From the IMG/VR virus record IMGVR_UViG_3300011113_000621, positions 1 through 64,000 of that record: 64,000 nucleotides of DNA. One strand, written 5' to 3'. The notes beneath the pieces are model-generated. The model was not told the DNA's origin and made no database searches. It saw only the letters and a program-made list of their open reading frames with translations. Made by a program: the position numbers and the translations under genes. Shown here piece by piece: positions 2,713 to 21,950 of the stretch. Positions within the stretch are counted from its first letter, which is position 1. Each line of letters opens with the position of its first letter. The stretch comes from a virus.

Positions 2713-3610
2713 GGTATTTATCGCTATCCTTGCAAAGCAAAAGGAAAAGGTACTTCCATTATTCTTGCGCTCGCTTTATGATCTTGACTACCCTAAGGAA
2801 GACATTGCGCTATACGTGAGAACAAACAACAACACGGATAACACGCAACAGATTTTAGATGACTGGCTAAAAGAGCATCGCGCGGAGTATCACTACGTGC
2901 ACTATGATAACAGCGACATCGCAGATAACGTCGAGCAATACGGAGTTCACGAGTGGAACGGCGTGCGTTTTCGTGCGCTCGCAAAGATACGTCAGGCAAG
3001 TCTTGACGCGTTTCTAAGAAGTGACTGTGACTACTACTTTGTCATTGACGTTGACAACTTCCTGTTTCCTGAGACCCTAAAGGATCTTATTGAGGCTAGT
3101 AAGCCAATCATTGCTCCTTTATTGAGATACGCGGTCGCGACAGACGAATTTCCAGACTCTCCAGAGGACCAGGAGCGCGTAGGAAGTCACAAGTGTAGAT
3201 ATTACTCAAACTACCACCACATGGTAGATGACTACGGCTCGATACTAAATGAGCCAGTGTACTATCAACTTCTTCACCGCGTTGAAGGATATAAAGGTAT
3301 ATGGGACGTTGACTGTGTTCACTGCACGTATCTCATCAAGCGAGAACATGTAGATAAGCTTAGCTACCTTGAGGACTCAGATCGTTGGGAGTATATGGTC
3401 TTCTCGGAGTCTGCGCGTAAAGCTCGCATCAACCAATATTTGGACAACCGTAAGATCTACGGAATTCTTACTCTTACTGAGAACGGTCCAATGTGCGAGT
3501 GGTTGTTTGATCACCTAAAGGATCCGGCAACGCGCGACGAGCGCTACCAACAACATAATCCGCAGGACATCTTTTATACGCCTGAGAGGGCAGTAATACT
3601 AAGCGAGTAA
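2702..3610 (+). CDS. GT-A glycosyltransferase resembling the procollagen galactosyltransferase (COLGALT/LH3)/Anp1-type domain
   Basis: VFIAIL...LDYPK...TNNNTDNT...YFVIDVDNFL (DxD)...KPIIAPLL...VHCTYLI. Confidence 0.7.
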   Translation: MASKVFIAILAKQKEKVLPLFLRSLYDLDYPKEDIALYVRTNNNTDNTQQILDDWLKEHRAEYHYVHYDNSDIADNVEQYGVHEWNGVRFRALAKIRQASLDAFLRSDCDYYFVIDVDNFLFPETLKDLIEASKPIIAPLLRYAVATDEFPDSPEDQERVGSHKCRYYSNYHHMVDDYGSILNEPVYYQLLHRVEGYKGIWDVDCVHCTYLIKREHVDKLSYLEDSDRWEYMVFSESARKARINQYLDNRKIYGILTLTENGPMCEWLFDHLKDPATRDERYQQHNPQDIFYTPERAVILSE

Positions 3611-4579
3611 CTCGATACTTGTCTTTACCTTGGCGCTTACCAATATTGCCTCGGCAACCTTTAGGGTTTCAATTCCTGACTCAATTGACGTGACATTCTC
3701 AGATAGACCTAATACGTAGTCGCGGAATGCCTCGTGCTCTGCGAGTAAAGGTTCCTTACGGTTTAGTGAATATCGTGTAACGTCACCTTCCATAACACCT
3801 CTAAAGTTGTCTACGTCATATAAGGAGTTTGGATAATATGTCAACTGTGCATTTAGGGTATCCGCAACGAGCGCGCCTTTTTCACCAAGTATCGTAGTCT
3901 CACGTACCTTAAATGGACTCAGCCAGTCAATCATGTGCGTTGCAACGATACCTCCGTTGAGTTGTCCAATAATTGAGACGATGTCCTCGTGCTCTTTGCC
4001 TGAGTGATACGCGGTATGCGCGGTTACAGTTTCATATTTTCTCTGCGCGATCCACGAGGTAAGATCAATATCGTGCGTTCCTAGATCCTTTACGACACCA
4101 ACGTCCGCAATACGTGTCGGGTGCCAGCCTTGCCTTCTTGTGTAGATCTGGTAGATCTTGCCAAGTTGGCCTGACTCGATACGTTTCTTTGCCTCAATAA
4201 GCGCGGGGTTATAGCGCTCGATTTGCCCAACAGCTCCAACAAGATGCGCGTTTGTAAGCGCGTAGGATATTCTTTGCGCTGAGTCTACGGAGTGTGCAAG
4301 TGGCTTTTCAATGAGAACGTTTGCTCCCATGTCAATGATCTCAAGCGCAACCTCCTCGTGAAGTACGGTAGGAACTGCAACTACACAGTAATCAATGTCT
4401 TTCTTAATAAGATCACTTATCTGGCTAAGCAGTATTTCCTTTTTAACTGCGTTTGTTGGGTCGCCAGCTGGGTCATACACACCCACGAGATCAACGCCAG
4501 AGAGGTTAGAGAGGACACGTGCGTGATTTCTGCCCATCACACCTAAGCCAATAAGTGCGGCCTTTAGATTGGCTCCCAC
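3599..4579 (-). CDS. Gfo/Idh/MocA NAD-dependent NDP-sugar 3-dehydrogenase (WbpB/WlbA-like)
   Basis: Rossmann GLGVMG, EKP motif, ERYNP, DLGTHDID. Confidence 0.85.
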   Translation of the reverse strand: MGANLKAALIGLGVMGRNHARVLSNLSGVDLVGVYDPAGDPTNAVKKEILLSQISDLIKKDIDYCVVAVPTVLHEEVALEIIDMGANVLIEKPLAHSVDSAQRISYALTNAHLVGAVGQIERYNPALIEAKKRIESGQLGKIYQIYTRRQGWHPTRIADVGVVKDLGTHDIDLTSWIAQRKYETVTAHTAYHSGKEHEDIVSIIGQLNGGIVATHMIDWLSPFKVRETTILGEKGALVADTLNAQLTYYPNSLYDVDNFRGVMEGDVTRYSLNRKEPLLAEHEAFRDYVLGLSENVTSIESGIETLKVAEAILVSAKVKTSIELLA

Positions 4580-5664
4580 TAGCTTCCAGCCTTTGCTACC
4601 TTATTAACTGCGTTGACGATCTTGTGAAGATCGCCCATGCTAAGCTTAGGGTGAACAGGAAGAGATAGAACCTGCTTACATGCGGTCTTTGTTTTCTTAA
4701 GATCAAAGTCCTTGTTAAACGAAGGAAGCTTATGAACTGGTGTTGGATAATACACACCTGAGCCAATGCCAAGTTTTTCAAGCTCCTGGGCAAATTGATC
4801 TCTGTCATGATCAACTACACGTATCGTGTATTGGTGATACACGTGCGTATAGCCAAACTCCTCAACAGGGACAATTACTCCTTCAAGGTTCTCGCTAAGA
4901 TACTTTGCGTTCTCGCGACGTAACAGGTTAGCGCGGTGAAGCTTACGTAGTTGAACTCGGCCAATTGCCGCGTGAATATCTGTCATGCGTAGGTTAAATC
5001 CAACAACCTCGTTTGCATATCGTTTTTCCATGCCTTGGTTGCGAAGAAGACGTGCGTATCTTTCTACATTTTCATCTAGGGTAACAACCATGCCGCCCTC
5101 ACCGCTGGTCATGTTCTTTGTTGGATAAAACGAAAACGCAGCCGCGTCGCCAAATGATCCAACGTTTTGTCCAAGAATTTGAGCTCCGTGAGCTTGAGCC
5201 GCGTCTTCAATGACAAGTAGGTTGTGCTTCTCCGCGATGGCAAGAATTTTTTCCATGTTTGCGGGGTGTCCGTAGAGATGAACTACCTGTATCGCGCGTG
5301 TCTTCTTTGTTATTGCAGCCTCAATAGCCTTAGGATCAATGTTAAACGTGTCAAGCTCGATGTCAACAAACACAGGCGTCGCGCCAGTTAGAGCAACTGA
5401 GTTTGCAGTTGCGGCAAACGTAAAGCTTGGAACGATGACCTCGTCGCCCTGCTTTATACCAAGCGATAACAATGCGACGTGTAGAGCTGAGGTTCCGGAG
5501 TTGACGGCAACGCAACGTCGTCCGTCTACCCAGTTAGAGAATTCTTTTTCAAAGGCAAGTACCTGTGGTCCTTGTGCCATGCCGCCTGAGCGTAAAACCT
5601 TGTCAACCGCTTTTCTTTCACCGCGACCAATGTCAGGACTTGCTACGGATATAAACTTACTCAT
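4579..5664 (-). CDS. DegT/DnrJ/EryC1/StrS PLP-dependent NDP-sugar aminotransferase (WbpE-like)
   Basis: NSGTSAL, VHLYG, EDAAQAHGA, SFYPTKNMTSGEGG (PLP lysine), LSLPVHP. Confidence 0.92.
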   Translation of the reverse strand: MSKFISVASPDIGRGERKAVDKVLRSGGMAQGPQVLAFEKEFSNWVDGRRCVAVNSGTSALHVALLSLGIKQGDEVIVPSFTFAATANSVALTGATPVFVDIELDTFNIDPKAIEAAITKKTRAIQVVHLYGHPANMEKILAIAEKHNLLVIEDAAQAHGAQILGQNVGSFGDAAAFSFYPTKNMTSGEGGMVVTLDENVERYARLLRNQGMEKRYANEVVGFNLRMTDIHAAIGRVQLRKLHRANLLRRENAKYLSENLEGVIVPVEEFGYTHVYHQYTIRVVDHDRDQFAQELEKLGIGSGVYYPTPVHKLPSFNKDFDLKKTKTACKQVLSLPVHPKLSMGDLHKIVNAVNKVAKAGS

Positions 5665-6178
5665 GCCAGTATTCTACCTTACCTTCTGCAGTTACAGTTG
5701 CGACAACGCGTGCTGGAACACCCATCACGAGTGAAAATGGCGGAACATCCTTGGTCACAACGGCGCCTGCTGCAACGACTGCCCAGCGACCAATTTTAAC
5801 TGGCGCTACACATATTGCGCCTGCGCCGATTGATGCGCCTTCCTCAACCTCAACTCCGACAGCATGCCAGTCGCTTGAATCTTTTTGCGTCATGTCTGCG
5901 TTGACTGCTCGCGGATAGTGATCATTTGTAAAGATAACTCCTGGACCTATAAAAACTCCGTCGTGCACCTTTGCAGGTTCATAGATCATCGCGCCGTTTT
6001 GGATTTTTGAATTGTCACCAATATGCACGTCAGTTCCAACGTATGCACCTTTTCCAACTATAACGTTTTTTCCAAGATGCGCACCTTTGCGGACTTGAGC
6101 ATGATGCCAGACACGCACACCGTCTTGTAAAGATACACTATCCTCAACACTAGCAGAAGCTTCTACGTGTATTGTCAT
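5657..6178 (-). CDS. Left-handed beta-helix NDP-aminosugar N-acetyltransferase (WbpD/WlbB-like)
   Basis: Hexapeptide repeats, VWH, FIGPGVIFTNDHYPR, GAVVTKDVP...GVPAR. Confidence 0.88.
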   Translation of the reverse strand: MTIHVEASASVEDSVSLQDGVRVWHHAQVRKGAHLGKNVIVGKGAYVGTDVHIGDNSKIQNGAMIYEPAKVHDGVFIGPGVIFTNDHYPRAVNADMTQKDSSDWHAVGVEVEEGASIGAGAICVAPVKIGRWAVVAAGAVVTKDVPPFSLVMGVPARVVATVTAEGKVEYWHE

Positions 6179-6681
6179 ACCTTGTCCTTTTTCTTCTTTG
6201 TCTTTTTCTTACGTGGCTTTACTTTCTTTTCCTTTTTTTGAGCGTGATATGCATCTACCGCGTTAGCGCTCGTTCGCGAGCGCCAGGTAAAGTCACAGGC
6301 CTCGCACTTAACAAGCTTCATCGTGTTCCAACGTCCACCACCAGGAACGTCGACTACCAACGTATGTAATTTATTAGGTCGAGCGTTGCAATATGGACAC
6401 TGTGGAAAACGTTGACGTCGTGATTCCTGACCGTTCCATGAGACAGATAGTGTTCTTCTTATCTCACCTTCGTCTTTTCCACCCCAGATTCCCCAGATCT
6501 GTCTGTGCTCTAACGCCCACTTTAAGCATTCCTGTCTTGCAGGGCAAAGAAAACAAAGATTTTTTGCTTGGTATTTTTCAAAAGGTTGAGTTGAGAAAAA
6601 ATATTCACGTATCTTTTGATTTTCTGACTTAGCACACAAGGCTTCCTTTTGCCAGTCTAAACTTTTAGGAGTTACACTCAT
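6175..6681 (-). CDS. whiB: WhiB-family Fe-S transcription factor with C-terminal Zn-ribbon and basic tail
   Basis: WQKEALC...CFLCPARQEC..WAL...WGIWGG; extra CPYC...CEAC and Lys-rich end. Confidence 0.85.
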   Translation of the reverse strand: MSVTPKSLDWQKEALCAKSENQKIREYFFSTQPFEKYQAKNLCFLCPARQECLKWALEHRQIWGIWGGKDEGEIRRTLSVSWNGQESRRQRFPQCPYCNARPNKLHTLVVDVPGGGRWNTMKLVKCEACDFTWRSRTSANAVDAYHAQKKEKKVKPRKKKTKKKKDKV

Positions 6682-7055
6682 GTAAGTAGCACCTCAACCC
6701 AGGTAACCGGAGTTACATTATCAACTACATCTCCGTATGGTGTTTCTCCGTTTTCATCGCAAACTGAAAGATCGATGTCTCCGTCTACCTCTCCAGCGTA
6801 TCCAATTGAGATCTTTGCATTTTCTAAAGATTGAAAACCATTTCCTAATGAAATTGATATTCCATCACGCTGCAGTGCGGATGCAAGTGCGCGGCGTATT
6901 AACTCGTTCTCGAGGTCAACGTGCTCATCGGTAAAGAAAACTATGCTTTCATCAAGTAGCGGATCAAAGCCGTCACCTGTCCACTCTTTCCATAAAAGTT
7001 CGCCTACGCGTGAGTCCTTCACGATATTCCTCATCTGGGGAGATGGATAGATCAT
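6678..7055 (-). CDS. Hypothetical acidic protein
   Basis: ORF overlaps the whiB start by 4 nt; no recognisable motif; true start may be a downstream GTG. Confidence 0.55.
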   Translation of the reverse strand: MIYPSPQMRNIVKDSRVGELLWKEWTGDGFDPLLDESIVFFTDEHVDLENELIRRALASALQRDGISISLGNGFQSLENAKISIGYAGEVDGDIDLSVCDENGETPYGDVVDNVTPVTWVEVLLT

Positions 7056-7160
7056 ATATCGAGTGGAGTATTCTCGCGATAAGAATCACCGATTATTTTT
7101 TACACGTGAGATTACCCTAGACCTGTAGAGATAGGGTCTTAAAGAGGCAGTGAGTGACTA

Positions 7161-7688
7161 TTAAGCGGCGTTATAAGTGCCAAGATAGAGTTCGCCTTGG
7201 GCATTAGGCCATAGGTATTGATAGTACTCTGGGCGATAACCTTTATCCTCTGGCCAGCCAAACTGTGAGTACCAAGGATAATCTTTACGTAGAAGCGCTA
7301 TACGATGAGTCGATGCAAGCTGTTCATACTTTTCAATATCCTGCATCCAGGATGGAAACTTAAGATCGTCGTCTATACGGCCTATCTTTACCGCATGGTC
7401 ATAGGTAGAAAATATCTTAGGTAGCATTGTTGAGTTAAAGCCGCGGCTAACCCACTCGTTGTAGCAGGCAAGCGTGTATGCGACTAGAGCAGTTTCGTAA
7501 CCGCGCCACATATTTGCCGCAGGGTGATTTGCCCAGCCTTTTGGGTCACGGTTGTTATTGTTAGGGTCAAGACGGCTGATGGTTAAAAGTAATTGCCATG
7601 CCTCAAGTACTTGCTTGTTTAGGCGCTTATTATCAAGCTCGCGAGCAATGTGCTCAAACGAATCAGTATGAGGTAAGAATGTTTGCAT
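7161..7688 (-). CDS. Pyrimidine-dimer DNA glycosylase-like protein (MSMEG_6728 / T4 endonuclease V superfamily)
   Basis: MQTFLP...LDNKRLNKQVLEAWQ...HPAANMWRGYE...HRIALLRKD..WY...YLWP. Confidence 0.8.
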   Translation of the reverse strand: MQTFLPHTDSFEHIARELDNKRLNKQVLEAWQLLLTISRLDPNNNNRDPKGWANHPAANMWRGYETALVAYTLACYNEWVSRGFNSTMLPKIFSTYDHAVKIGRIDDDLKFPSWMQDIEKYEQLASTHRIALLRKDYPWYSQFGWPEDKGYRPEYYQYLWPNAQGELYLGTYNAA

Positions 7689-7713
7689 GGTCGTCCTTTG
7701 TCATTAGGGGTTT

Positions 7714-7724
7714 ATTATATCAGG
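7714..7724 (-). promoter_or_regulatory. Extended -10 promoter CCTGATATAAT
   Basis: Identical 11-mer at 62842 and 63453; upstream of the glycosylase gene. Confidence 0.6.
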
Positions 7725-7995
7725 AACCTTGGTCGTAGTCCTCCTGATTTCCTGGGTCCTCATATTCATCAATTTGGTCAATTGGGACATATATACCTAC
7801 CACCGTTACACGTCCACAGGCGGTACACTCGTTGACGGCGCCTGGAGATAGTTGAATTGGCACGTTTACACTTACCAGGCGCGTGATGATATTACCTCTT
7901 TCATCAACGCTATCTGGCTCCCAAACTGAGTTTTCGTCAATCCAACAACGCTCACATATTGGGACAAGTTCCTCCTCGCCGCCGCGAATACTCAT
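7720..7995 (-). CDS. Small putative Zn-binding protein
   Basis: CERC and CTAC pairs; translationally coupled to the upstream MTase-like gene. Confidence 0.55.
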   Translation of the reverse strand: MSIRGGEEELVPICERCWIDENSVWEPDSVDERGNIITRLVSVNVPIQLSPGAVNECTACGRVTVVGIYVPIDQIDEYEDPGNQEDYDQGS

Positions 7996-9230
7996 GTGTA
8001 CATCTTCTTTGCAGCTTGACGTGAGAAACCGCGATCTGTATCAATTAAAAATTCTCTATCACCAATTTTTTGTGCATCGCCTTGTTGTGGATTTCCCTCT
8101 AGTGATTCCTTAAGTGCCTTTGCAATCCATGAGGCTGCTTGCACTGGAACTGCCTTTCCCCACGTTGCCGCGAGCGCAGAGTAATCCTTTGATCCTTCAA
8201 TGTCCCAATCATCAGGAAGTCCCTGCATGCGTGCGCACTCTCTATGAGTTATAAGTCTTGGCTGTGTCGGGTGAATAACATGCTCTAACGCAGAGCCAGT
8301 TAACACGTTACACCAGTGATCTTCCTTCCATCGATAAGGTTGACTAAAGCCTAGCTTAAACTCTCTACGCTTAATACGTGGAGCCACATCAATCCACGTT
8401 TGAGGAAACGTATTATCGTTCATTTCCACTGCAAGCTTTACAGCCTTTCCAAGATCTCCGTTTCCTGGCCAGTTTTCGTTTCCTATTATGTCGAATACAT
8501 CTTTTATTCTTTGAACATGTATGTTGTTTTTTCCAATGTGCCCATCTACCTTTTGACTTTTAGATCTAAGATGTTTAACATGCTTTGATGGCGCAGGCTC
8601 AGTGTAAGGTTGTTTACTCCAACTTTGTGGCATTTCTGCAAGATCACCAATGATGTCCATAATCCTTGGAAGCTCTTTAGTCTTTGGCGTTGTAACGTCG
8701 AACTTAAGTCCTTTTCTTACAGCAACCCAAAAGTATCTTGGACGATAAGAAAATCCACCAAGTTGTAGGTTATTGTGTTTAACGTGATAAAGATCATACT
8801 TTTTACCAGAAACTTCCTCGACCATATCGCGATACTTAAGCATTACATCTCTACCTTGAGTATAGGCTTGTTGAACACACTCAAAGACGACCGCTTGAGG
8901 TTTTACGCGTCCTGCGTATTTCATAAATGCCCTTGTGTGTTCATGCGCCTTTGCATCAATTCCTCTATTACTCGGCCCTGACCATACCGACCATCCTGAG
9001 CATGGCGGACAACCAAGAACTATGTCTGTCTTCTTTGTTTCCCACTCGCTTGCATCATCTGAGAAGTTTGCTATCCAATTGTTTCCCATATGAGTTCTGT
9101 TGTTTTCAACTACCTGGTTTCCAAAGTTTAATGTCCCTGTGCGATGAATCATTTCCATTTCATTTTGCACAAAGCCAAGACTCATAAAGCCAGCAAGACC
9201 ATTGCAGTCAACAAACGTCATTTGTGACAT
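7992..9230 (-). CDS. Divergent C5-cytosine DNA methyltransferase-fold enzyme
   Basis: Motif IV GCPPCSGWS, VI FECV, VIII RPRYFWVA, IX RLITHRECARMQGLPDDW, X GKAVP; motif I degenerate (DCNGLAGF). Confidence 0.8.
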   Translation of the reverse strand: MSQMTFVDCNGLAGFMSLGFVQNEMEMIHRTGTLNFGNQVVENNRTHMGNNWIANFSDDASEWETKKTDIVLGCPPCSGWSVWSGPSNRGIDAKAHEHTRAFMKYAGRVKPQAVVFECVQQAYTQGRDVMLKYRDMVEEVSGKKYDLYHVKHNNLQLGGFSYRPRYFWVAVRKGLKFDVTTPKTKELPRIMDIIGDLAEMPQSWSKQPYTEPAPSKHVKHLRSKSQKVDGHIGKNNIHVQRIKDVFDIIGNENWPGNGDLGKAVKLAVEMNDNTFPQTWIDVAPRIKRREFKLGFSQPYRWKEDHWCNVLTGSALEHVIHPTQPRLITHRECARMQGLPDDWDIEGSKDYSALAATWGKAVPVQAASWIAKALKESLEGNPQQGDAQKIGDREFLIDTDRGFSRQAAKKMYT

Positions 9231-9307
9231 TTTTCCCTCTCGTAACTAAGTCCTACGGATGGACTGTATACTGAGAGGAAAGATGCGACCTGTCTAAATC
9301 ACTTTAT

Positions 9308-9610
9308 TTAGCTAGTTTTTTCTGCCTGGGTTCTTCCTACCTCATACCCGCAACCAGCGTATCCTGCAATATCAATCCAGGTATCAGGTTGAAACCCAGA
9401 CTTATTTGCGTATCGCGCGATCTTTAACCCAATCATTAACATTCCCACGTCCTCCTGGGTAATGTTTATCCCAAGAATCACTGACCATATTCTTGCAATG
9501 CGATCAAAGTTTTCCTCAGGACCTCCATATTGAATGTCACGGTCACCTACAATGATGCGCGCAGCTTCACGCAATGCCTCTACTCGATATAAAGATTTCT
9601 CATCACTCAT
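9308..9610 (-). CDS. DUF6378-like phage protein (frequently found in nucleotide-metabolism clusters)
   Basis: L.EA..II.GDR...YG.PEENF.RIA..WS...LKIAR...DTWIDIAGYAGC. Confidence 0.75.
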   Translation of the reverse strand: MSDEKSLYRVEALREAARIIVGDRDIQYGGPEENFDRIARIWSVILGINITQEDVGMLMIGLKIARYANKSGFQPDTWIDIAGYAGCGYEVGRTQAEKTS

Positions 9611-9611
9611 A

Positions 9612-9812
9612 TTATTCCTCTATCTTTGTCTTTACAATTACATATGCCATGTATCTTTTATCATTTTCTGTAGATGCAAGCATGCGCACCTCAGCGCCTA
9701 ATGGAAGTTTTGCGTCTTCATCTTCATTTATTCTCTTCCACTCAGCTAGTACTTTTTCCTTTACCTGTGAAATAGTTTCACCTGACACATAAAATTCAAT
9801 AGACGATCTCAT
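9612..9812 (-). CDS. Hypothetical protein
   Basis: Tightly packed ORF (ATGA overlap) inside the operon. Confidence 0.55.
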   Translation of the reverse strand: MRSSIEFYVSGETISQVKEKVLAEWKRINEDEDAKLPLGAEVRMLASTENDKRYMAYVIVKTKIEE

Positions 9813-10228
9813 TGAATTCGTTTCTGCAGTTGATAAGGAGCGTAGTGAGCGCCATCAAGAATTGGTTCCTTGTCATCAGTTGACTTAAACACAATATCTC
9901 CGTAGCGCACGGCAACAACGCGTCCTCTTCTTCCATTGTGAATAACTCCTGTACTACCGTCATAGGCATCAGCCTTTACGCGAACCTCATCACCTACGGT
10001 AATTGATCCAGGTTGAGCATCAATCCATTTTTCAGTTGGCGGCTCAGGAACAATTGAGTGTGTAAGCGCAAGTTGTGGAAACAACGCAACGACCTCCTTT
10101 ACTTGTGGATTAGAAAGATCAAGCGTTTCCCACGTCTTTAGTAACTTTAAGATGGCGTTTCCAACACCAACCTTTACACGTGCACCTTGCATTTGTTGGC
10201 GCACCCAGTCATAATTTACCTCAGGCAT
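9809..10228 (-). CDS. Hypothetical protein with SH3/KOW-like C-terminal domain
   Basis: ITVGDEVRVK...HNGRRGRVVAVRYGDIVF; overlaps both neighbours. Confidence 0.55.
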   Translation of the reverse strand: MPEVNYDWVRQQMQGARVKVGVGNAILKLLKTWETLDLSNPQVKEVVALFPQLALTHSIVPEPPTEKWIDAQPGSITVGDEVRVKADAYDGSTGVIHNGRRGRVVAVRYGDIVFKSTDDKEPILDGAHYAPYQLQKRIQ

Positions 10229-10706
10229 TTCCGTCTACCTCCTTTGGGAGACATTTTGCACACATATCTGGTGATGCGCCTCGACCAACGTCGTCAATTG
10301 CACGGGCGCAGAGCGCACACTTGACGCCAATATCTTTAATCTTGTATCCGTCTAACTGCCTTTGTTTGTTTCGTTCCATCTTTTCAATGTAAAACTTATC
10401 AAGCATTTCATCTGTTCCACCAGCGGCAACAATTATGTTTGCGACAAAGTGTAGAACGTCAACGGCCTCCTTGATAATTTCCTCGCGGTCTGCGTATGGC
10501 TTATCGTGTTGCCAAGGCTTCCATGATATTGCCTGGCGCATCTCTGCAAGTTCATCGTCAATGGCAAGCATATTCCAACGCATGTACTCAATGAGACGAC
10601 GAATATTAGCGTCCTTGTCGCCTGACATATCCTCAAAGTTTATGTAATAAACGTTTGTTTGTAGATCCTTTGTGCGTTTAATCCAGTTATTAAACAATAT
10701 TCCCAT
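10221..10706 (-). CDS. All-alpha NTP pyrophosphohydrolase (dimeric dUTPase / T4 gp56 dCTPase / MazG-like) with C-terminal CxxC-CxxC
   Basis: DELAEM...WKPW...EEIIKEAVDVLHF...YIEKMERNKQRQLDGY. Confidence 0.8.
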   Translation of the reverse strand: MGILFNNWIKRTKDLQTNVYYINFEDMSGDKDANIRRLIEYMRWNMLAIDDELAEMRQAISWKPWQHDKPYADREEIIKEAVDVLHFVANIIVAAGGTDEMLDKFYIEKMERNKQRQLDGYKIKDIGVKCALCARAIDDVGRGASPDMCAKCLPKEVDGNA

Positions 10707-10711
10707 GACTA

Positions 10712-11737
10712 CTATTTTCCTTTCGTTGCGTATAGGTTTAATGCGTCAGATACAGTCACCGCAGCATCTCTACGAGACGGAATTGACTTAGCATATTCTT
10801 CTCTTTGTGCGTGAGCGACTTCCACGCGTTTGTCAATGGGAAGAGTTTCAATGTGAGATGCAAGATATGTCCATGAATCTCCAATGGCTTGACTCTCTCG
10901 CCAATCTGTAGCTACGGGAGTAGAGGCATTAAGCGACTGTATTAGTCGATATGACCACCAAGTACCTCCTGTTTGATACGGACTAATTAAGGAGCCAATG
11001 CCAGAGCTTATTTGTGAGAATACCTGCTCGTCGTTCCAACCTTTATGCCACTTCATTGGAACTGACTGATAAGCAAGCATTCCAGTAACTTCCTTTATCC
11101 AGCTTGTGTTGTAATTTTCTACTACCCATTTATCACGCTTTTCAACTTCAATTGAGTCCTGCGTAGATAGTATGTATGAGTCCAGGTTTATTGCACACAA
11201 AGACTCAGCTGCACCTGCAGGTAATTGAGAAATTATCTTGCCTGTCCCAGACCAAGGAAGTGCTGGATACAAGGTAGTTGGCCACTCATCATTAAGAAGT
11301 CGATTTACAACCGCAAGTAAGTTTGATGCCATACCTGGAACTGTTGCATACATAAAACCTTTACGATACGAGTAAAAAGGCTTTGTTAAGTTATCTGGAG
11401 TTTTTACGATTGCACGTAAGCTCGCAGTTATGCGCGTTGGCTCTGGCGCATCAATAAAAAAGCGCAGTTTAGACGACTCTTGTAAAAGATCTATTAAGTT
11501 AAGTGCGCCATATACACGATTTGCACTTAAACTAGTTAATGGGCTAAGTCCAATAAGCACAAGATCGTATTGATCAAGGTCATTTATGTTCCATGAAATA
11601 TCAGGATCATCTTGAACTACCTCATGCCCGAGCTGAGAAAGAACATTACAAATAAGTCCAGCAAAAGATAGCGAGCGTTTATTGGCCTCGGCTGATGCGT
11701 GAGGCGCACTCATTCCTGTAATAAGTATCTTACTCAT
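10712..11737 (-). CDS. GT-B glycosyltransferase, T4 DNA beta-glucosyltransferase-like (paralog 2)
   Basis: KILITG...LGHEV...YDLVLIGLSPL...FFIDAPE...WWSYRLIQSL.ASTPVATD; colinear with the adjacent paralog. Confidence 0.6.
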   Translation of the reverse strand: MSKILITGMSAPHASAEANKRSLSFAGLICNVLSQLGHEVVQDDPDISWNINDLDQYDLVLIGLSPLTSLSANRVYGALNLIDLLQESSKLRFFIDAPEPTRITASLRAIVKTPDNLTKPFYSYRKGFMYATVPGMASNLLAVVNRLLNDEWPTTLYPALPWSGTGKIISQLPAGAAESLCAINLDSYILSTQDSIEVEKRDKWVVENYNTSWIKEVTGMLAYQSVPMKWHKGWNDEQVFSQISSGIGSLISPYQTGGTWWSYRLIQSLNASTPVATDWRESQAIGDSWTYLASHIETLPIDKRVEVAHAQREEYAKSIPSRRDAAVTVSDALNLYATKGK

Positions 11738-12954
11738 GCAAGTGTACCATCAGCATTTCTTTTTAGTCCTTTGTCCTCTTGTAGTGCGCGATTTATGATG
11801 CGACTGCAGTGTTCTACAAACGATGAGTATTGAGGAACAAACGGAGTAAACGCGTCACGTTGCGCCTGAGCTGCCTCGATAAGTTGAGCATCACTCATCT
11901 TTTCAACATCTGCAATTTTAAGTTTATACGCGTCACCTAATGGATCACCTTCACCTTTGTCAGTTACAAGAATTGATCCTACGTGCGCGGTGTAAAGAAA
12001 GCGACTGCGCCACCAGCCAGATCCAGCGTGCGGATATGGTGGAGAAAGAATTCCCCAATGTTGATTGTAAAACTCCAACACGTCCTTCTCTGTGTCAAAT
12101 CTTTGTCCGCCAAGTTTGCGTATTAACTTGCGACTGCCAACAATTTCAACTGGCCAAGTTAGATTTTTCTTTTCAAGCCAAGTATCATGTGGCATTAACG
12201 CACCTAAAACCCATGCGCGTTTCTTAAGTGACTGATTTAGTGGGACTACAGGACTTAGCGTTGGGACTATTGTTGATGTCGGGTCTAATGCCTCAATTGG
12301 ACCAAGTTCCTTTGGCATACGTTTACGCACAATAGATCTATCACCAAACGAGTACATAGGACAAACTGGAACCATACCAGCGGACCAACGCTCAATTAAA
12401 AGATCCTCGGCAGCTTGAACAAGCCTTTTCTCCCAGGGTTTAATTGTTTCATCGTTATCCATCATGTAATAGCGTTCAATGTAGCACTTCTTTGCCGCAT
12501 CTGGACTTACTGCACGCACTCTTTCAAGTGCAGCCTCAATGTCTGCACGACTAAAATATGTTGCGCCTTCATCACCGCGATGTTCAGTTCCAACAAGCAG
12601 ATGTTTGTACAACATCTCAGGTTTGCGAACTAGTGCCTTTGCTCCGTTGAACACAGTATTAAACTGCCAATCATCAAAAAATCCAACACAAGGTAGTCCA
12701 GATGACAGTGTGTAAAGTGCACCCATTGCGCCTTGTCTGCCGTTAAGCGAGTTTAATGGTGCAAGATTGACCCAGGCAACATCATATGAAGACAAGTCCT
12801 CGCCGGGAGTTACCTTACGCCAATCAACTTCATGACCTAACTCACGCAACGCCTGTGCAATAGACGCAGGCACGTCAATTTTTTGTATCGTCCTTTTTTC
12901 AGTGTTTATCTGCAGTGCAGTAAACCCTGTCATTAAGACAGATAACTTTTTCAT
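11734..12954 (-). CDS. GT-B glycosyltransferase, T4 DNA beta-glucosyltransferase-like (paralog 1)
   Basis: VLMTG...LGHEVDW...YDVAWVNLAPLNSLNG (cf. BGT YDRLIVVNSSINFFGG), FFDDWQ (cf. BGT LFTDIR), WWRSRF...ILVTD. Confidence 0.65.
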   Translation of the reverse strand: MKKLSVLMTGFTALQINTEKRTIQKIDVPASIAQALRELGHEVDWRKVTPGEDLSSYDVAWVNLAPLNSLNGRQGAMGALYTLSSGLPCVGFFDDWQFNTVFNGAKALVRKPEMLYKHLLVGTEHRGDEGATYFSRADIEAALERVRAVSPDAAKKCYIERYYMMDNDETIKPWEKRLVQAAEDLLIERWSAGMVPVCPMYSFGDRSIVRKRMPKELGPIEALDPTSTIVPTLSPVVPLNQSLKKRAWVLGALMPHDTWLEKKNLTWPVEIVGSRKLIRKLGGQRFDTEKDVLEFYNQHWGILSPPYPHAGSGWWRSRFLYTAHVGSILVTDKGEGDPLGDAYKLKIADVEKMSDAQLIEAAQAQRDAFTPFVPQYSSFVEHCSRIINRALQEDKGLKRNADGTLA

Positions 12955-17611: not shown

Positions 17612-19434
17612 TTATATTTTTCTCCCCAGTTTTCCATAGGCCCGTCTATTCCTGCAGTAAGAGGAACATCCCAGCCTTGCGTAGTTGTCATGCACTGCTT
17701 AACAATGTTTTTAATTTCTTCAACGTCCTTCCTTGGCGCGTTAAGAACAATTTCATCGTGTACTGGAACTATGAGAAGTTCAGTTAAGTCAGCTTGATCT
17801 AACTTAACAAGGTTTGCCTTAAATACCTCGGCAGCGCCTCCTTGGATTAAATAATTCACCAGTGTGTAAACTCGGTCTTCATCGCACGGAAGGCGTCTGC
17901 CTGTCCATGTATATACATACCCTTGACCTTCTGCCTTTAGGCGACGCATTCCAGCATCTTCAATTTGGCGTTGAAAGTGCGACATTCCAGGAAACCTTGT
18001 ATCAAAAGCATCTGATACAGATCTCATTTGCCCTTCTTGTACTCCAGCTGTAATTGCTTGCTTCGCGACTCCAGCTCCATAAAGACGACCGTATACCGTT
18101 CCTTTAATAAGGTTACGACGCTTATCTGAGCGTTGCATATTTGGATCGTTGTAGATTTCTCTACCAATTTCCGTAAACGGATCTGACCCAGTAGCATCAG
18201 CTCTATTGAATAGGTTGATGAGATTTGGATCTTGCGAGAGCGAGGCAAACATTCTGAACTCGACTTGGTCAAGGTCGCTGGTAACAATGACATGTTCATC
18301 GTCCTTTGGGATAAATGCCGTGCGAACAGTGTCATCACCCTTAGGCAATGTCTGCAAGGCTGGATTTTGTATGCTCATACGACTCGTGCGAGCGCCAAGT
18401 GTTTTTACGGAAGGGTGAACTACTCCGTTTACGTTATCACTTAAGAAGTTTGAAAAATAAGTGTTTGCAAGCTTGTCTGCCTTACGTTGTTTTAACACGA
18501 TTTCGGCAAGATTTTTTACCTCGTCGTTTCCGTTAATGGTAAGTAGCTTTAATTGGTCCTTTGTTGCAGATTTTTGTCCTGTAGGTGTAAATTCTGTAAT
18601 TTCCGCGCCAAGTTTTTCAAAAAGACGCACTAGTTGAATGTTACTTGATATGGAAGTGCCGTTGTAGGTCTGCTTAGCCCAGTCTTTTACCGACTGACTG
18701 TAATCATTTAGCTCGTCATACTTTCTTTTAGAGTACTCAAGGTCTACGCGTGCTCCATTGATCTCCATGCGCGTAACGATCTTGCGTGCAGCCATTTCAA
18801 GTTCGTAAGCGCGGTTATATGGACCCGTAGGACCGCACTTTTCATAAAACATCTCCCACAGACGCATTGTAAGCACTGTATCAAGTGCTCCGTATGCCCA
18901 AAACGGTTCAAAGTTTACTGGAACTGTTCCCCATGTCCAACCATTTTCAATAAGCTTAAGGTCTAAGGTATCTTGCAACGCAACTGCGCGGCCATCAACG
19001 TGTAGTGCGGCAAGTTGCTTTAACGCACCAGATCCTAAAGGGTCAATTATGTGTGCCATAATCATAGTGTCGTGTGACCTATGCCATGGAATGTCCCAGC
19101 GTGATTGAACTGCAAACCAACGAGCCTCAAATGCTATGTTGTGACACACTAAAGGTCCATCAAACTTGTCCATAGCCTCGTAGAAAACACCAGCCCACTC
19201 TTGCCAAGGAATAGACCAACCTTGTTGGCCATCTCCGACTTGAACAAGACGTAGTTGACCGTGCCATGGAGATAGCGCATCACTGCGTTGACCACCTGGA
19301 CGCTCACCAGTTTCTGTATCAACTGCAATTGCGTTGTGTGGGCGTCTTTCACCGAGCCAACGTATAAAGGCATTAGCCTTTTCTACGCTGTCTACAAGGT
19401 GAAGCTTGACGTCGCCTAGTCCGCTATCTGTCAT
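17608..19434 (-). CDS. polA: Family A DNA polymerase (3'-5' exonuclease + polymerase)
   Basis: ExoI VDTET, HN..FE, YGALD; motif A DLDQVEFR, motif B KGTVYGRLYG, NYLIQGGAA, motif C VHDE. Confidence 0.95.
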   Translation of the reverse strand: MTDSGLGDVKLHLVDSVEKANAFIRWLGERRPHNAIAVDTETGERPGGQRSDALSPWHGQLRLVQVGDGQQGWSIPWQEWAGVFYEAMDKFDGPLVCHNIAFEARWFAVQSRWDIPWHRSHDTMIMAHIIDPLGSGALKQLAALHVDGRAVALQDTLDLKLIENGWTWGTVPVNFEPFWAYGALDTVLTMRLWEMFYEKCGPTGPYNRAYELEMAARKIVTRMEINGARVDLEYSKRKYDELNDYSQSVKDWAKQTYNGTSISSNIQLVRLFEKLGAEITEFTPTGQKSATKDQLKLLTINGNDEVKNLAEIVLKQRKADKLANTYFSNFLSDNVNGVVHPSVKTLGARTSRMSIQNPALQTLPKGDDTVRTAFIPKDDEHVIVTSDLDQVEFRMFASLSQDPNLINLFNRADATGSDPFTEIGREIYNDPNMQRSDKRRNLIKGTVYGRLYGAGVAKQAITAGVQEGQMRSVSDAFDTRFPGMSHFQRQIEDAGMRRLKAEGQGYVYTWTGRRLPCDEDRVYTLVNYLIQGGAAEVFKANLVKLDQADLTELLIVPVHDEIVLNAPRKDVEEIKNIVKQCMTTTQGWDVPLTAGIDGPMENWGEKYK

Positions 19435-19924
19435 TTACGTCCTTTGTTATTGTTACTTCTATATTACACTGTAAAAAGTACTCTACGGTCTCATCAGGAA
19501 GGCGATGAGACGCACGAGTGCCAATTCTCATAACAACACGACGTATTCCAGCGTTTGATATTAACTTTGCGCATTGATAACATGCTGCATCAGTTATGTA
19601 TATGGTTCCACCTTCAACGCGCGAGCGATCTACATATAAAAGTGCATTTGCCTCCGCATGTATTGACGGGCAGGAATCATACGTATTTGTCAAAGGAACT
19701 ACTCCTTGAGCGCGTGGGCACCATTCAATACAGTCACCTTCAACCGCAAGTGTCGCAGCGGGTCCGTTGTATCCTGTAGATGAGATACGTTGACTCTTTG
19801 AGACAACAACTGCACCTATTTGCGCACGACTACAGCGTGAACGTTTGGCAATTGAGTCTGCCACCGACATCCACGTTTCATCCCAGGAGGGTCTAGTTAG
19901 ATGATTCAGGTGGTCCTCCAACAA
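19424..19924 (-). CDS. dCMP deaminase (ComEB-like)
   Basis: RPSWDE, RS.C.R.QIGAV, TGYNG, HAEANA, CYQC. Confidence 0.9.
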   Translation of the reverse strand: MLEDHLNHLTRPSWDETWMSVADSIAKRSRCSRAQIGAVVVSKSQRISSTGYNGPAATLAVEGDCIEWCPRAQGVVPLTNTYDSCPSIHAEANALLYVDRSRVEGGTIYITDAACYQCAKLISNAGIRRVVMRIGTRASHRLPDETVEYFLQCNIEVTITKDVNDR

Positions 19925-20093
19925 TCATGCTGTTAAAAAGCTTGCTAATTAAAAACATAGCTTCCCTACGAGTAAACCCAGCCGCCTGCAGTTCAGTGTA
20001 CATCTCATGAAGTTGAACCATGGCAGCCTTCATTGGGCTTTCATACATGTCTTCAATTTCACGTTTTAATTTTTTCATCTTCTCTTCATCCAT
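19893..20093 (-). CDS. Small hypothetical protein
   Basis: ATG at 20093 overlaps the end of the TS-like gene; LHEMY..L..AGFTRREA motif. Confidence 0.55.
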   Translation of the reverse strand: MDEEKMKKLKREIEDMYESPMKAAMVQLHEMYTELQAAGFTRREAMFLISKLFNSMIVGGPPESSN

Positions 20094-20952
20094 TTGATTT
20101 TTCCTTATTCTTCTCAATGGCGCGTATCATTGCACTAGCATACCATCCTTCAAAGGGGTGAAGTCTATACCGTAACATTGTCTCTTCTATATGCTGAGCG
20201 GCAGTTAACGCGCTTAAGGCATATGATGAAACTTGCTGCCAAGTTAATCCAGTGATGGCTGGAATATCCTCATACTTGTCTGTGTACTTTAACTTATCAG
20301 CCATATCATAGTGTTGCTCGTAGATATGAAGAGATCCAACGTGGTGTGTGTAGTTTCCAGGCTCAATACCTAACACAGACGCAATTGCAAGTTGAACACG
20401 CGTAAATTGAAAGAAGTCATACGCGGCTCCAAGCCACACATCGTTCGAGCGCATAAATACAGTCATGTTTAACTTATTGTCACGTATTCTAAATTGGTGA
20501 AGTATCGTGCAGGGGTAGTCACGTTTCTTTGGAAGTAGATCGAGTTCAGGATTCCATATCGTAACAACTGCCTGTCTTGTGTCTGGGTCCTGCCTTAGTC
20601 TTTCAATAACCTTTTCATATTGGCCATTAGTTCTTAGACCATATGCGCCATGAAACAGTCCGTTGTCCTCAGCGTAGTTCTTAAATTGCGGGCCAACTGC
20701 AATGACAAGTTTTGGCGTTGATACTCCAGCGAGAAGTTGACACGCCTCAACCGCACCAATACCTGGAACAGTTCCGCGTCCTACACCTAATGGTAAGGTG
20801 TTCTTTACGTCATCAATGCGAATTACCGCGTCCTCGATCTCACGGGTCTTCATTCCGCGCGGAGCGGTTTCTCGACCGTGCTCTAAGACGTGTTTAACAA
20901 GATCAACGTATCCGTTAACTCCGTCTGGTATATTTATTATCGCAGTATCCAC
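20086..20952 (-). CDS. Thymidylate-synthase homolog of dCMP-hydroxymethylase type
   Basis: AYG.R, DPDTRQA, catalytic PC, RSNDVWLGAAYD (Asp at the E. coli Asn177-equivalent position), GSLHIY. Confidence 0.85.
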   Translation of the reverse strand: MDTAIINIPDGVNGYVDLVKHVLEHGRETAPRGMKTREIEDAVIRIDDVKNTLPLGVGRGTVPGIGAVEACQLLAGVSTPKLVIAVGPQFKNYAEDNGLFHGAYGLRTNGQYEKVIERLRQDPDTRQAVVTIWNPELDLLPKKRDYPCTILHQFRIRDNKLNMTVFMRSNDVWLGAAYDFFQFTRVQLAIASVLGIEPGNYTHHVGSLHIYEQHYDMADKLKYTDKYEDIPAITGLTWQQVSSYALSALTAAQHIEETMLRYRLHPFEGWYASAMIRAIEKNKEKSNG

Positions 20953-21950
20953 TGGCTCTCCCTGTCATATCGTAGTGATTGCTTAAATATCTCGTGCCCG
21001 TAATCTAGCTTGCGTGCGTTAGAGAAACGCCTTACATATTGCGGATGAGGAAGAACAACGTATTGGTGTTCCTTAAATCCATGAGCCTTTAGTCCTTTTT
21101 CTGCTTGGCTCCCAAGTGCAATTATTCTTGGTCTTCTTAATACCTGCCACAACTCGTCAACCTGCGTAACGTGCTCATCATTTACATTTATAATTCCCAT
21201 GGTCTTCCAAGAGTTACCTGGAAGAGATGATAACAAGAAATCACCAGAGTTTCCATCAACAGGCATAAATGGTAGTATTGTCTCCTTACCGTAAGCTTCC
21301 TTTATATTTTGTCTATCTCCAACAAGTAGTACCTGCGCGTCATAACGTCCAATGTACCAAGGAAATTGCTTAAGACTAGCTGCCTTAGTTTCCGCGTAGT
21401 ATGAGTTACTTATTATTTTTTCTGCAAGCATGGGAATATCATGTAGAGATTCGCTTGACGGGTTTAACATCTCGAACTCAGTGGCAACCTCGTCTGCCGC
21501 AAGTCGATATTGACCAAGGATCTTGCCAAGCTCATCACTAGTTACGTAATCGTCACCGCGAGATGAAAGACGACGTTGAATCACGTCTAAAGGTTGATAG
21601 AGCCAAAATTGATGAACACCGCGAGAGGCAAGAAAGAGTTCAACCCAACGCCAGCCCGCGACACCAAGTAGACCGTATCCGTCTTTATTATACTCGGGGC
21701 GTTTTAATGGAGAATATGTTTTTTCACCCCAGTGCCAACGGTCCGCGATCACGTTAGTAGCAGTAAAGTTACAGTTTTCTACAGATGTAACATAGTCTTG
21801 TAAAACCCAGCGACGGGTCATTTCTTGCGGCTTACTTTTATGAAAAAATTCTAGTTTCTTGTTAGGCTGAATTAAAAGTAGACCTTCTTTTATAGCGTCT
21901 ACAAGAGTAGATTTGCCAGAAGCATCTGTGCCCTCTATTATTATAAACAT
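20937..21950 (-). CDS. dNMP (thymidylate-like) kinase fused to a uracil-DNA-glycosylase-fold domain
   Basis: IEGTDASGKST P-loop and IADRWH; C-terminal VLLVGD...PF..VDGNSG...IIALG..A...HPQY. Confidence 0.75.
   Translation of the reverse strand: MFIIIEGTDASGKSTLVDAIKEGLLLIQPNKKLEFFHKSKPQEMTRRWVLQDYVTSVENCNFTATNVIADRWHWGEKTYSPLKRPEYNKDGYGLLGVAGWRWVELFLASRGVHQFWLYQPLDVIQRRLSSRGDDYVTSDELGKILGQYRLAADEVATEFEMLNPSSESLHDIPMLAEKIISNSYYAETKAASLKQFPWYIGRYDAQVLLVGDRQNIKEAYGKETILPFMPVDGNSGDFLLSSLPGNSWKTMGIINVNDEHVTQVDELWQVLRRPRIIALGSQAEKGLKAHGFKEHQYVVLPHPQYVRRFSNARKLDYGHEIFKQSLRYDRESQWILR

Follow-up and report, generated by a model that had tools for sequence, protein, structure and literature searches.

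What might a protein with the fold of a cytosine-C5 DNA methyltransferase (C5-MTase) do in a virus whose own cytosines should already be occupied at C5? The question is raised by a gene on the minus strand (7992..9230, stop codon included, as given by the list of open reading frames and their translations) of a 64,000-nucleotide stretch of viral DNA, positions 1 to 64,000 of IMG/VR record IMGVR_UViG_3300011113_000621, which we call the window. Few DNA enzymes are understood as well as the C5-methyltransferases. The product of this gene, termed here the Lys-type enzyme, belongs to a clade with hundreds of viral members, none characterised, that keeps the residues for covalent chemistry on the base, has a replaced methyl-donor pocket, and occurs in genomes where C5 should already carry a group. 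Sequence and genomic context together indicate that the enzyme is probably not an ordinary methyltransferase. We favor, tentatively, a reading in which it acts without S-adenosylmethionine (SAM, or AdoMet) on 5-hydroxymethylcytosine (5hmC) or a derived base within the phage genome itself, rewriting a subset of sites.

To locate the changes in this protein, we established residue equivalences with HMMER alignments to solved methylases and with a profile that was built from 104 family members and aligned to M.HaeIII. The catalytic residues proper are retained. The motif IV core reads Pro76-Cys77-Ser78 (8997..9005; all window features described here lie on the minus strand), with the nucleophilic cysteine kept in a PC dipeptide encoded at 9000-9005. 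Motif VI is Glu117-Cys118-Val119 (8874..8882) in place of the canonical ENV, motif VIII retains its RxR as Arg163-Pro-Arg165 (8736..8744), and motif IX is the same as in canonical C5-MTases. The base-flipping scaffold and the covalent machinery (Cys77, Glu117, Arg163/Arg165) are predicted to be intact, and the residues that read the Watson-Crick edge of cytosine are canonical by alignment.

The cofactor side of the active site has a different appearance. Motif I is rebuilt as D8-C-N-G-L-A-G-F15 (9186..9209), such that Asn10 occupies the column of the phenylalanine that stacks on the adenine of SAM and Leu12 that of the first glycine in FxGxG. Gly32 (9135..9137) stands at the motif II position, in the column of M.HaeIII Glu29, where SAM-dependent enzymes have a ribose-binding glutamate, and Ile53 falls in the column of the motif III aspartate (M.HaeIII Asp50), the contact to adenine N6. 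Motif X reads Gly358-Lys359-Ala-Val (8148..8159), with the lysine codon AAG at 8154-8156. Because HMMER pairs W-G-K-A-V-P-V of the enzyme with I-G-N-A-V-P-V of M.HaeIII, and thereby GKAV with GNAV, Lys359 is assigned to the position of the motif X asparagine. Judged from these alignments, every classical contact to the adenosine of SAM is replaced, and the three side chains around the C5 group are altered (Gln to Ser78 in PCQ, Asn to Cys118 in ENV, and Asn to Lys359). An earlier, sequence-only reading of the window had described the retained PC, motif VI Glu and motif VIII RxR together with an altered motif I and a motif X lysine, all of which the alignments confirm. Its inventory missed Gly32, Ile53 and Ser78, however, and with every adenosine contact replaced, along with three residues near the transferred group, its description of a broken motif I understates the change.

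The C5-MTase fold, also proposed in that reading, is borne out by both profile matches and modelling. The sole Pfam match is PF00145 (C-5 cytosine DNA methylase), which covers residues 13-374 with E=1.5e-24; the protein also matches PHROG 116 (5e-34) and is a member of TIGR00675. An AlphaFold2 (AF2) model made with the family alignment has a predicted local distance difference test score (pLDDT) of 96.1 and a predicted template-modelling score (pTM) of 0.93. When compared with solved structures by VIA-align, it gave Z scores of 30.4 for DNMT1 (356 residues aligned), 28.7 for the prophage CP-933R methylase 3G7U, 28.5 for M.HaeIII (1DCT), about 26 for M.HhaI, 24.2 for M.MpeI and 23.2 for the phage enzyme CmoX (8YF3). 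The model resembles a complete C5-MTase with both of its domains, and its recognition domain is of the DNMT1 type. The VIA-align rows stop at model residues 377-386, and a conserved C-terminal tail (residues 381-412, 7995..8090, consensus GE.IG.RE.LID) extends past the aligned range of the solved C5-MTases in this comparison.

The reading frame comprises 412 codons with zero internal stops, and an AGAGGG ribosome-binding site lies 5 nt ahead of its first ATG. The ESM Atlas entry for the protein begins at Met4; the spacing of the ribosome-binding site favors Met1 (9219-9230). A search of the ESM Atlas with PF00145 excluded returned only sub-threshold matches, and a scan for promoters and terminators around the gene gave scores no better than those of shuffled sequence.

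We then asked how the altered motifs are conserved, using a close set of 120 homologues (58-86% identity) and a distant set. For the latter, 1.84 billion cluster representatives were searched exhaustively with HMMER; 134 matched at E<1e-30, of which 130 (50%-identity clusters) were aligned. In the close set, the segments D-C-N-G-L-A-G-F, G-C-P-P-C-S-G-W-S, F-E-C-V-Q-Q, R-x-R-Y-F-W and W-G-K-A-V show no or almost no variation; motif I is invariant in all 109 aligned close homologues, and the motif X lysine is present in 121 of 121. Among the 130 distant representatives, motif X carries Lys in 123 and Arg in 3, and the column of the motif I phenylalanine holds no Phe at all, but Gln, His, Asn, Glu or Tyr instead. 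The PCQ glutamine position is Ser in 107 representatives, while motif VI has its Glu in 129, followed by Ser in 122, Cys in 5 and Asn in none. In motif VIII, the equivalents of Arg163 and Arg165 are present in 127 and 130 of the 130, respectively. Divergence within the clade reaches ∼30% identity with Cys77, Glu117 and Arg165 near-invariant. The motif II column has Glu in 80 representatives and other residues (Ser/Gly/Ala/Thr) in 42, with Gly in the subclade of the enzyme. Given that Lys is found in 123 of 130 representatives and Glu in only 80, it is the lysine, and not the ribose-binding glutamate, that serves as the defining feature of the clade. The full signature consists of GK at motif X, PPCS, E-(S/C)-V and a polar residue for the motif I phenylalanine, all of which are found in the enzyme.

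Comparison of the enzyme with six relatives gave ratios of nonsynonymous to synonymous substitution rates (dN/dS) of 0.059-0.076. A randomly decaying methylase, which the sequence-only reading had named as a possibility counting against its own proposal, is ruled out by these values and by the conservation of the motifs across the 120 homologues. These comparisons indicate that the changed pocket is under strong purifying selection and that its replacements are strictly conserved.

Homologues are found almost entirely in viruses. In IMG/VR, relatives are encoded on at least 475 stretches, and a homologue is present in 15 GenBank phage records, all from actinophages: Actinomycetia phage DSL-LC01, Gordonia phages of the Forza, GMA2 and GodonK groups, and Micrococcus phage Kurnik. 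In these carriers the gene order is one or more glycosyltransferases, MazG, and then a gene annotated “methyltransferase”. A megablast search of GenBank phages with window positions 7000-10500 gave no match. Among 185,579 prokaryotic species genomes there are two matches, both on contigs of metagenome-assembled genomes, and the clade is essentially virus-only. The two contigs (L199, Coriobacteriia, 17.6 kb; L200, Acidobacteria, 41 kb) may represent phage or prophage DNA that was binned with these genomes.

The viruses that carry the clade also appear to synthesize hydroxymethyl-dCMP (hm-dCMP). A thymidylate-synthase (TS) homologue is encoded in 38 of 39 enzyme-bearing phage records, with the single exception being 29% complete, and in 22 of 22 enzyme-bearing IMG/VR records with a completeness of 90% or more. 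The combination Asp/Asp169/Asp, which marks dCMP hydroxymethylases and not thymidylate synthases or 5-hydroxy-dCMP synthases (PMC13326640), is present in each of the 41 TS homologues inspected. It is on the basis of these counts, and of there being only two matches in metagenome-assembled genomes, that we describe the clade as virus-only and tied to hm-dCMP synthesis.

The virus represented by the window conforms to this pattern. Its TS homologue (20086..20952), whose best PDB match is the CMP 5-hydroxymethylase MilA (E=5e-22), has Asp at the positions of Escherichia coli ThyA L143 and N177 and retains Asp169. A 5-hydroxy-dCMP synthase was considered for this gene and is ruled out by the retained Asp169 (signature from PMC13326640). 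Also encoded are a dCMP deaminase (19424..19924; PF00383, E=6e-19), a P-loop dNMP-kinase-like protein (20937..21950; phrog_761 thymidylate kinase, E=3.8e-10) and a MazG/dUTPase_2-type nucleoside triphosphate pyrophosphohydrolase (10221..10706; PF08761, E=1.1e-11), a putative dCTPase that lies 1 kb upstream of the enzyme gene in the same operon. By homology, the kinase-like protein, the deaminase and the MazG hydrolase complete a phage T4-like route to hm-dCTP. Because this phage is predicted to make hm-dCMP, few C5 positions in its genome should be free.

To examine the genomic surroundings of the clade more broadly, we compared 71 diverse loci, including a second, distant IMG/VR set (25-51% identical to a query from the B subclade). 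In 45 of these loci a MazG-type gene occurs no more than a few genes upstream, and in 35 it is the immediate upstream neighbor; the reading frames often overlap. The commonest partner after MazG, present in 35 of the 71, is a family of 448-aa proteins that has no Pfam match. For one example (L102:1798-3141, plus strand), an AF2 model made with the family's own alignment (pLDDT 91) is beta-glucosyltransferase (BGT)-like, with the top six PDB matches all being T4 beta-glucosyltransferase, which suggests that the family represents widespread, unannotated DNA 5hmC glycosyltransferases. Further recurrent neighbors are a sugar-nucleotidyl transferase, an epimerase and a glycosyltransferase-like protein, and an amino-acid:DNA transferase (PF18724) is found near the enzyme in seven loci. 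Gene content thus ties the clade to hm-dCMP synthesis across lineages and marks it as part of a module for replacement of cytosine by glycosylated 5hmC.

In the window, the slot of the BGT-like glycosyltransferases is occupied by two paralogues of 341 and 406 aa (10712..12954). Neither has a Pfam match, and an hhalign comparison of the BGT-like 448-aa family with both proteins detected no similarity. Homologues are present in DSL-LC01, where one is annotated as a glycosyltransferase, and in Gordonia phage Forza, and there is a weak ESM Atlas lead to Glyco_trans_1_2. The two proteins are therefore putative glycosyltransferases on the grounds of synteny and annotation.

Domain fusions in the distant set provide additional clues. 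In a metagenomic protein of 919 aa (P0241), the Lys-type domain is fused to the 5-hmdU-DNA-kinase (HMUDK) helical domain PF18723 (E=5e-40), and the fused domain also matches the annotated aGPT-pyrophosphorylase (aGPT-Pplase) of Bacillus phage Nachito; this protein was sought in IMG/VR and not found there. In six other representatives the Lys-type domain is followed at the C terminus by a class-I SAM-methyltransferase domain (Methyltransf_23 or FkbM type). At another locus (L134), genes for a PF18724 amino-acid:DNA transferase and a free-standing FkbM-type protein (6585-7526 and 7935-8597, both plus strand) lie upstream of the Lys-type enzyme, the FkbM-type gene being three genes away. The fusions with HMUDK/aGPT-Pplase- and FkbM-type domains place the clade in multi-step DNA hypermodification. 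It also appears that, where a methyl group has to be transferred close by, the task falls to a distinct SAM-binding domain that Pfam can recognise. Finally, a 752-aa metagenomic protein (P0240) has a Hint/LAGLIDADG intein between the PP dipeptide and the catalytic Cys, which becomes the +1 extein residue. Inteins typically sit at essential sites, and this position directly before the nucleophile fits an essential catalytic site.

How might such an enzyme act on a base whose C5 position is already occupied? C5-MTases exchange the hydroxyl of 5hmC for thiols, and to our knowledge their cofactor-free side reactions on 5hmC have so far been laboratory curiosities. C5-MTases are likewise on record as adding aldehydes at C5 of cytosine (PMC7763475, citing Liutkeviciute 2009), and the background on cofactor-free C5-MTases given in the sequence-only reading holds. 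In the mechanism that we propose, the substrate would be 5hmC or a derivative in phage DNA, and no SAM would be used. Cys77 would add to C6, and the resulting enamine would let the substituent on the 5-CH2 group leave, with Lys359 acting as an acid or as an anion binder. The product of this step would be an exocyclic-methylene intermediate, as in thymidylate-synthase-type enzymes and as proposed for clade 2 aGPT-Pplases, for which group transfer at the C5 methyl is proposed to proceed through thiolate attack on C6 (PMC8989533). A second nucleophile might then capture the intermediate, or formaldehyde might be released, and the net effect would be that a subset of 5hmC sites is rewritten. It is possible, although we put this fuller version forward with still more reserve than the general reading, that the clade represents an undescribed hypermodification in actinobacterial and other hmC phages, in which a C5-MTase-fold enzyme rewrites 5hmC through C6 catalysis with Lys359 in the former methyl-donor site.

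The sequence-only reading had left two branches side by side, an anionic SAM analogue or action on hmC. Its view that the enzyme is likely not an ordinary methylase is supported, and its hmC branch is favored by the near-perfect co-occurrence with dCMP-hydroxymethylase-type genes (38 of 39 records). The branch that invokes carboxy-SAM (Cx-SAM) is disfavored, because the 99.7-kb contig and five relatives yielded no CmoA and the contig no Asn-synthase-type ligase, the adenosine contacts kept by CmoX are replaced, and by Z score the enzyme is no closer to CmoX (8YF3) than to ordinary methylases; the host might nevertheless supply Cx-SAM.

Several observations nonetheless weigh against action on 5hmC. 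Co-occurrence with hm-dCMP synthesis is also compatible with action on leftover or host cytosine. From the conservation of an N-terminal pocket (GFG, Asn44 and Trp63), a ligand of some kind seems to be bound there still, and this may be an unusual adenosyl cofactor. In addition, two thirds of the clade retain the motif II Glu, and the HMUDK-type fusion is known from a single cluster representative.

Perhaps the enzyme acts on unmodified cytosine with a non-SAM donor or with water. It could be a post-replicative proofreader that turns residual C in phage DNA into 5hmC, perhaps drawing on folate for the one-carbon unit, or a weapon against C-containing host DNA that deaminates or covalently traps cytosine and feeds cleavage by a glycosylase/AP (apurinic/apyrimidinic)-lyase. 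SAM-starved C5-MTases deaminate cytosine, and in this protein the residues that read the Watson-Crick edge and attack C6 are all canonical. The pairing with a dCTPase-like MazG, another cytosine-excluding function, is also in keeping with such a role, as is a Pyr_excise (T4 endonuclease V-like) glycosylase/AP-lyase gene (7161-7688) two genes downstream. However, the latter is a lineage-specific neighbor, kept in the enzyme's own lineage and DSL-LC01 and not in other lineages of the clade. A self-sufficient hydroxymethylation also predicts phages without a dCMP hydroxymethylase, and the only such case among the 39 records is the one that is 29% complete. Moreover, the smaller Ser78 and Cys118 and the fusion to a domain that processes hydroxymethylpyrimidines better fit a bulky C5 substituent. 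Taken jointly, we consider the proofreader and the weapon rather unlikely.

A second alternative is that the enzyme resembles CmoX, a DNA cytosine C5-carboxymethyltransferase that occurs naturally in Synechococcus phage S-B43 and was published in December 2025 (PMC12783734). Lys359 would then pair with the carboxylate of an anionic SAM analogue, and an alkyl or carboxyalkyl group would be transferred to unmodified cytosine. A basic residue at the position of M.HhaI Asn304 is indeed shared with M.MpeI N374K and with CmoX Arg350 (PMC12783734), and the background given earlier on M.MpeI N374K as a carboxymethyltransferase holds, being cited in the same paper. The class-I SAM-methyltransferase-fold fusions and neighbors (Methyltransf_23, FkbM, and a small class-I methyltransferase in DSL-LC01) could be CmoA-like synthases of the donor, and retention of the motif II Glu in much of the clade points in the same direction. 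However, a search for phage-encoded CmoA (TIGR00740) in the 99.7-kb contig (72% complete) and in five relatives (four are complete or were deposited as such) found none, extending to these genomes the absence first noted in the window. Searches of the contig for an Asn-synthase-type ligase (PF00733), for an FkbM-type domain and for a homologue of the DSL-LC01 methyltransferase were likewise negative, and there is no CmoA match among the fused class-I domains. The residues with which CmoX contacts its cofactor are replaced, the enzyme has CPPC and not SPPC, and its Z score to 8YF3 (23.2, versus 26-30 for ordinary methylases) points to a shared fold but to no particular kinship. C5 in the phage's own DNA should, in addition, already be occupied. 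We regard this alternative as unlikely.

Could the protein simply be a SAM-dependent 5-methylcytosine methyltransferase with divergent motifs, protecting residual C sites, for instance, or methylating host DNA? Membership of PF00145 and TIGR00675, the intact motifs IV, VI and VIII, and the databases that label its homologues as methyltransferases would all be accounted for. Yet every classical SAM contact is predicted to be replaced by residues that are conserved and not drifting. In M.HhaI, where Gln82 and Asn304 face and crowd the transferred group, Q82A alone cuts methylation 16-fold, and Y254S/N304A weakens the binding of both AdoMet and S-adenosylhomocysteine (AdoHcy) (PMC3526304). The enzyme also scores 57 bits against the NCBIfam dcm model, under the cut-off of 100.65 bits. 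An ordinary methylase is therefore improbable. That the protein is a non-catalytic DNA-binding or base-flipping accessory, such as one that presents 5hmC to glycosyltransferases, or a regulator, is very improbable, because the lost cofactor site and a C-terminal winged-helix domain in one representative (P0145) are outweighed by near-invariant Cys77, Glu117 and Arg165, a dN/dS of ∼0.07 and the intein at the catalytic Cys, whereas pseudo-enzymes usually lose their catalytic residues.

Other genes near the enzyme complete the picture of the locus. The enzyme gene sits in a co-oriented replication and nucleotide module, and the block from the WhiB gene to the DUF669 gene is strictly syntenic in 80 IMG/VR relatives (70-98% identity). 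Immediately downstream, the ATG of a 91-aa CxxC...CxxC protein (7720..7995) overlaps the stop codon of the enzyme gene (ATGA). This protein adjoins the enzyme in 77 of 84 enzyme-bearing loci, mostly from its own, freshwater lineage, and a family search with it gave no match. It is acidic, has two CxxC pairs and is translationally coupled to the enzyme, of which it may be a partner or regulator. The WhiB-like protein (6175-6681) has a Cys-rich C-terminal extension and a poly-Lys tail; a WhiB gene also follows the enzyme in Gordonia phage Forza and in DSL-LC01.

A GFO/IDH/MocA oxidoreductase, a DegT aminotransferase and a hexapeptide acyltransferase (3599-6178) form a WbpB/E/D-like amino-sugar set. 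This set is confined to the six nearest relatives (65-96% identity), while the remaining module is conserved, and DSL-LC01 carries a UDP-galactopyranose mutase in its place. Because the amino-sugar set varies and the rest of the module is kept, the sugar seems to differ between close phages.

If the Lys-type enzymes act on 5hmC, they would constitute a new enzymatic step in DNA hypermodification, possibly yielding a new base, and they might serve as tools for selective rewriting or labelling of 5hmC. If they instead use a new donor on cytosine, the discovery of CmoX would be extended to a second, independent lineage. The question is directly testable, since cultured carriers exist among the Gordonia phages (Forza, GMA2, GodonK) and in Micrococcus phage Kurnik.

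Comparison with known systems helps to define what is distinctive about the clade. The canonical C5-MTases (M.HaeIII, M.HhaI, 3G7U, DNMT1/MET1) share its two-domain fold, with Z scores of 26-30 over 288-368 residues, and the target-recognition domain of the enzyme is homologous to that of DNMT1/MET1. In contrast to these enzymes, conserved substitutions affect Phe and the first Gly of motif I, Glu of motif II, Asp of motif III, Gln of PCQ and the Asn of both ENV and motif X. A conserved tail is also added at the C terminus, and the clade is virus-only and linked to the synthesis of hm-dCMP. Engineered C5-MTases come closer in one respect. M.MpeI N374K, which uses Cx-SAM, and M.HhaI Q82A/Y254S/N304A, which accepts extended SAM analogues, are altered at the PCQ Gln and motif X Asn positions, as is the clade, and such alterations re-tune the group next to C5 (PMC3526304). 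However, their adenosine pocket is intact and a SAM-type cofactor is still needed, whereas the Lys clade appears to have rebuilt that pocket as well.

CmoX provides a natural parallel, and its existence means that an Arg-type carboxymethyltransferase had already been published, a precedent that the sequence-only reading missed. Both are phage enzymes of the C5-MTase fold in which a basic residue takes the place of M.HhaI Asn304, and a non-methyl C5 group used as a handle for hypermodification, as in CmoX, is inferred for the Lys clade. The sequences nevertheless indicate that the two differ. The CmoX family is defined by SPPC and Arg350, whereas CmoX itself needs a phage CmoA, which is often accompanied by an AMP-forming ligase, and retains Phe25, Glu47, Phe48 and Asp69 for Cx-SAM (PMC12783734). 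The corresponding residues of the enzyme, mapped through the M.HaeIII alignment and the motif equivalences of that paper, are Asn10, Gly32, Thr33 and Ile53, and it has CPPC with Lys359, the clade being mostly NPPC within a (N/C)PPCS motif. CmoX acts on plain C and travels with CmoA and an amide ligase, whereas the companions of the Lys clade are a dCMP hydroxymethylase, MazG and BGT-like glycosyltransferases.

The likeness to clade 2 aGPT-Pplases and 5-HMUDK (PMC8989533) is mechanistic only. It consists of a proposed C6 thiolate attack on a 5-hydroxymethyl-pyrimidine followed by exchange of the 5-methylene group, but those enzymes have a helix-hairpin-helix glycosylase-like fold and act on 5-hydroxymethyluracil after phosphorylation. 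No homology of the enzyme to aGPT-Pplase or HMUDK_hel was detected, PF00145 being its only match, and the sole PF18723 carrier is the distant fusion protein P0241. At the level of the whole module, a counterpart is found in phage T4 (gp56, gp42, gp1 and alpha/beta-glucosyltransferases), which is matched by the dCTPase-like MazG, the dCMP-hydroxymethylase-type TS homologue, the dNMP kinase and the BGT-like glycosyltransferases. We know of no C5-MTase-fold component in the T4 pathway, and relative to T4 the Lys-type enzyme would represent an additional step in the module.

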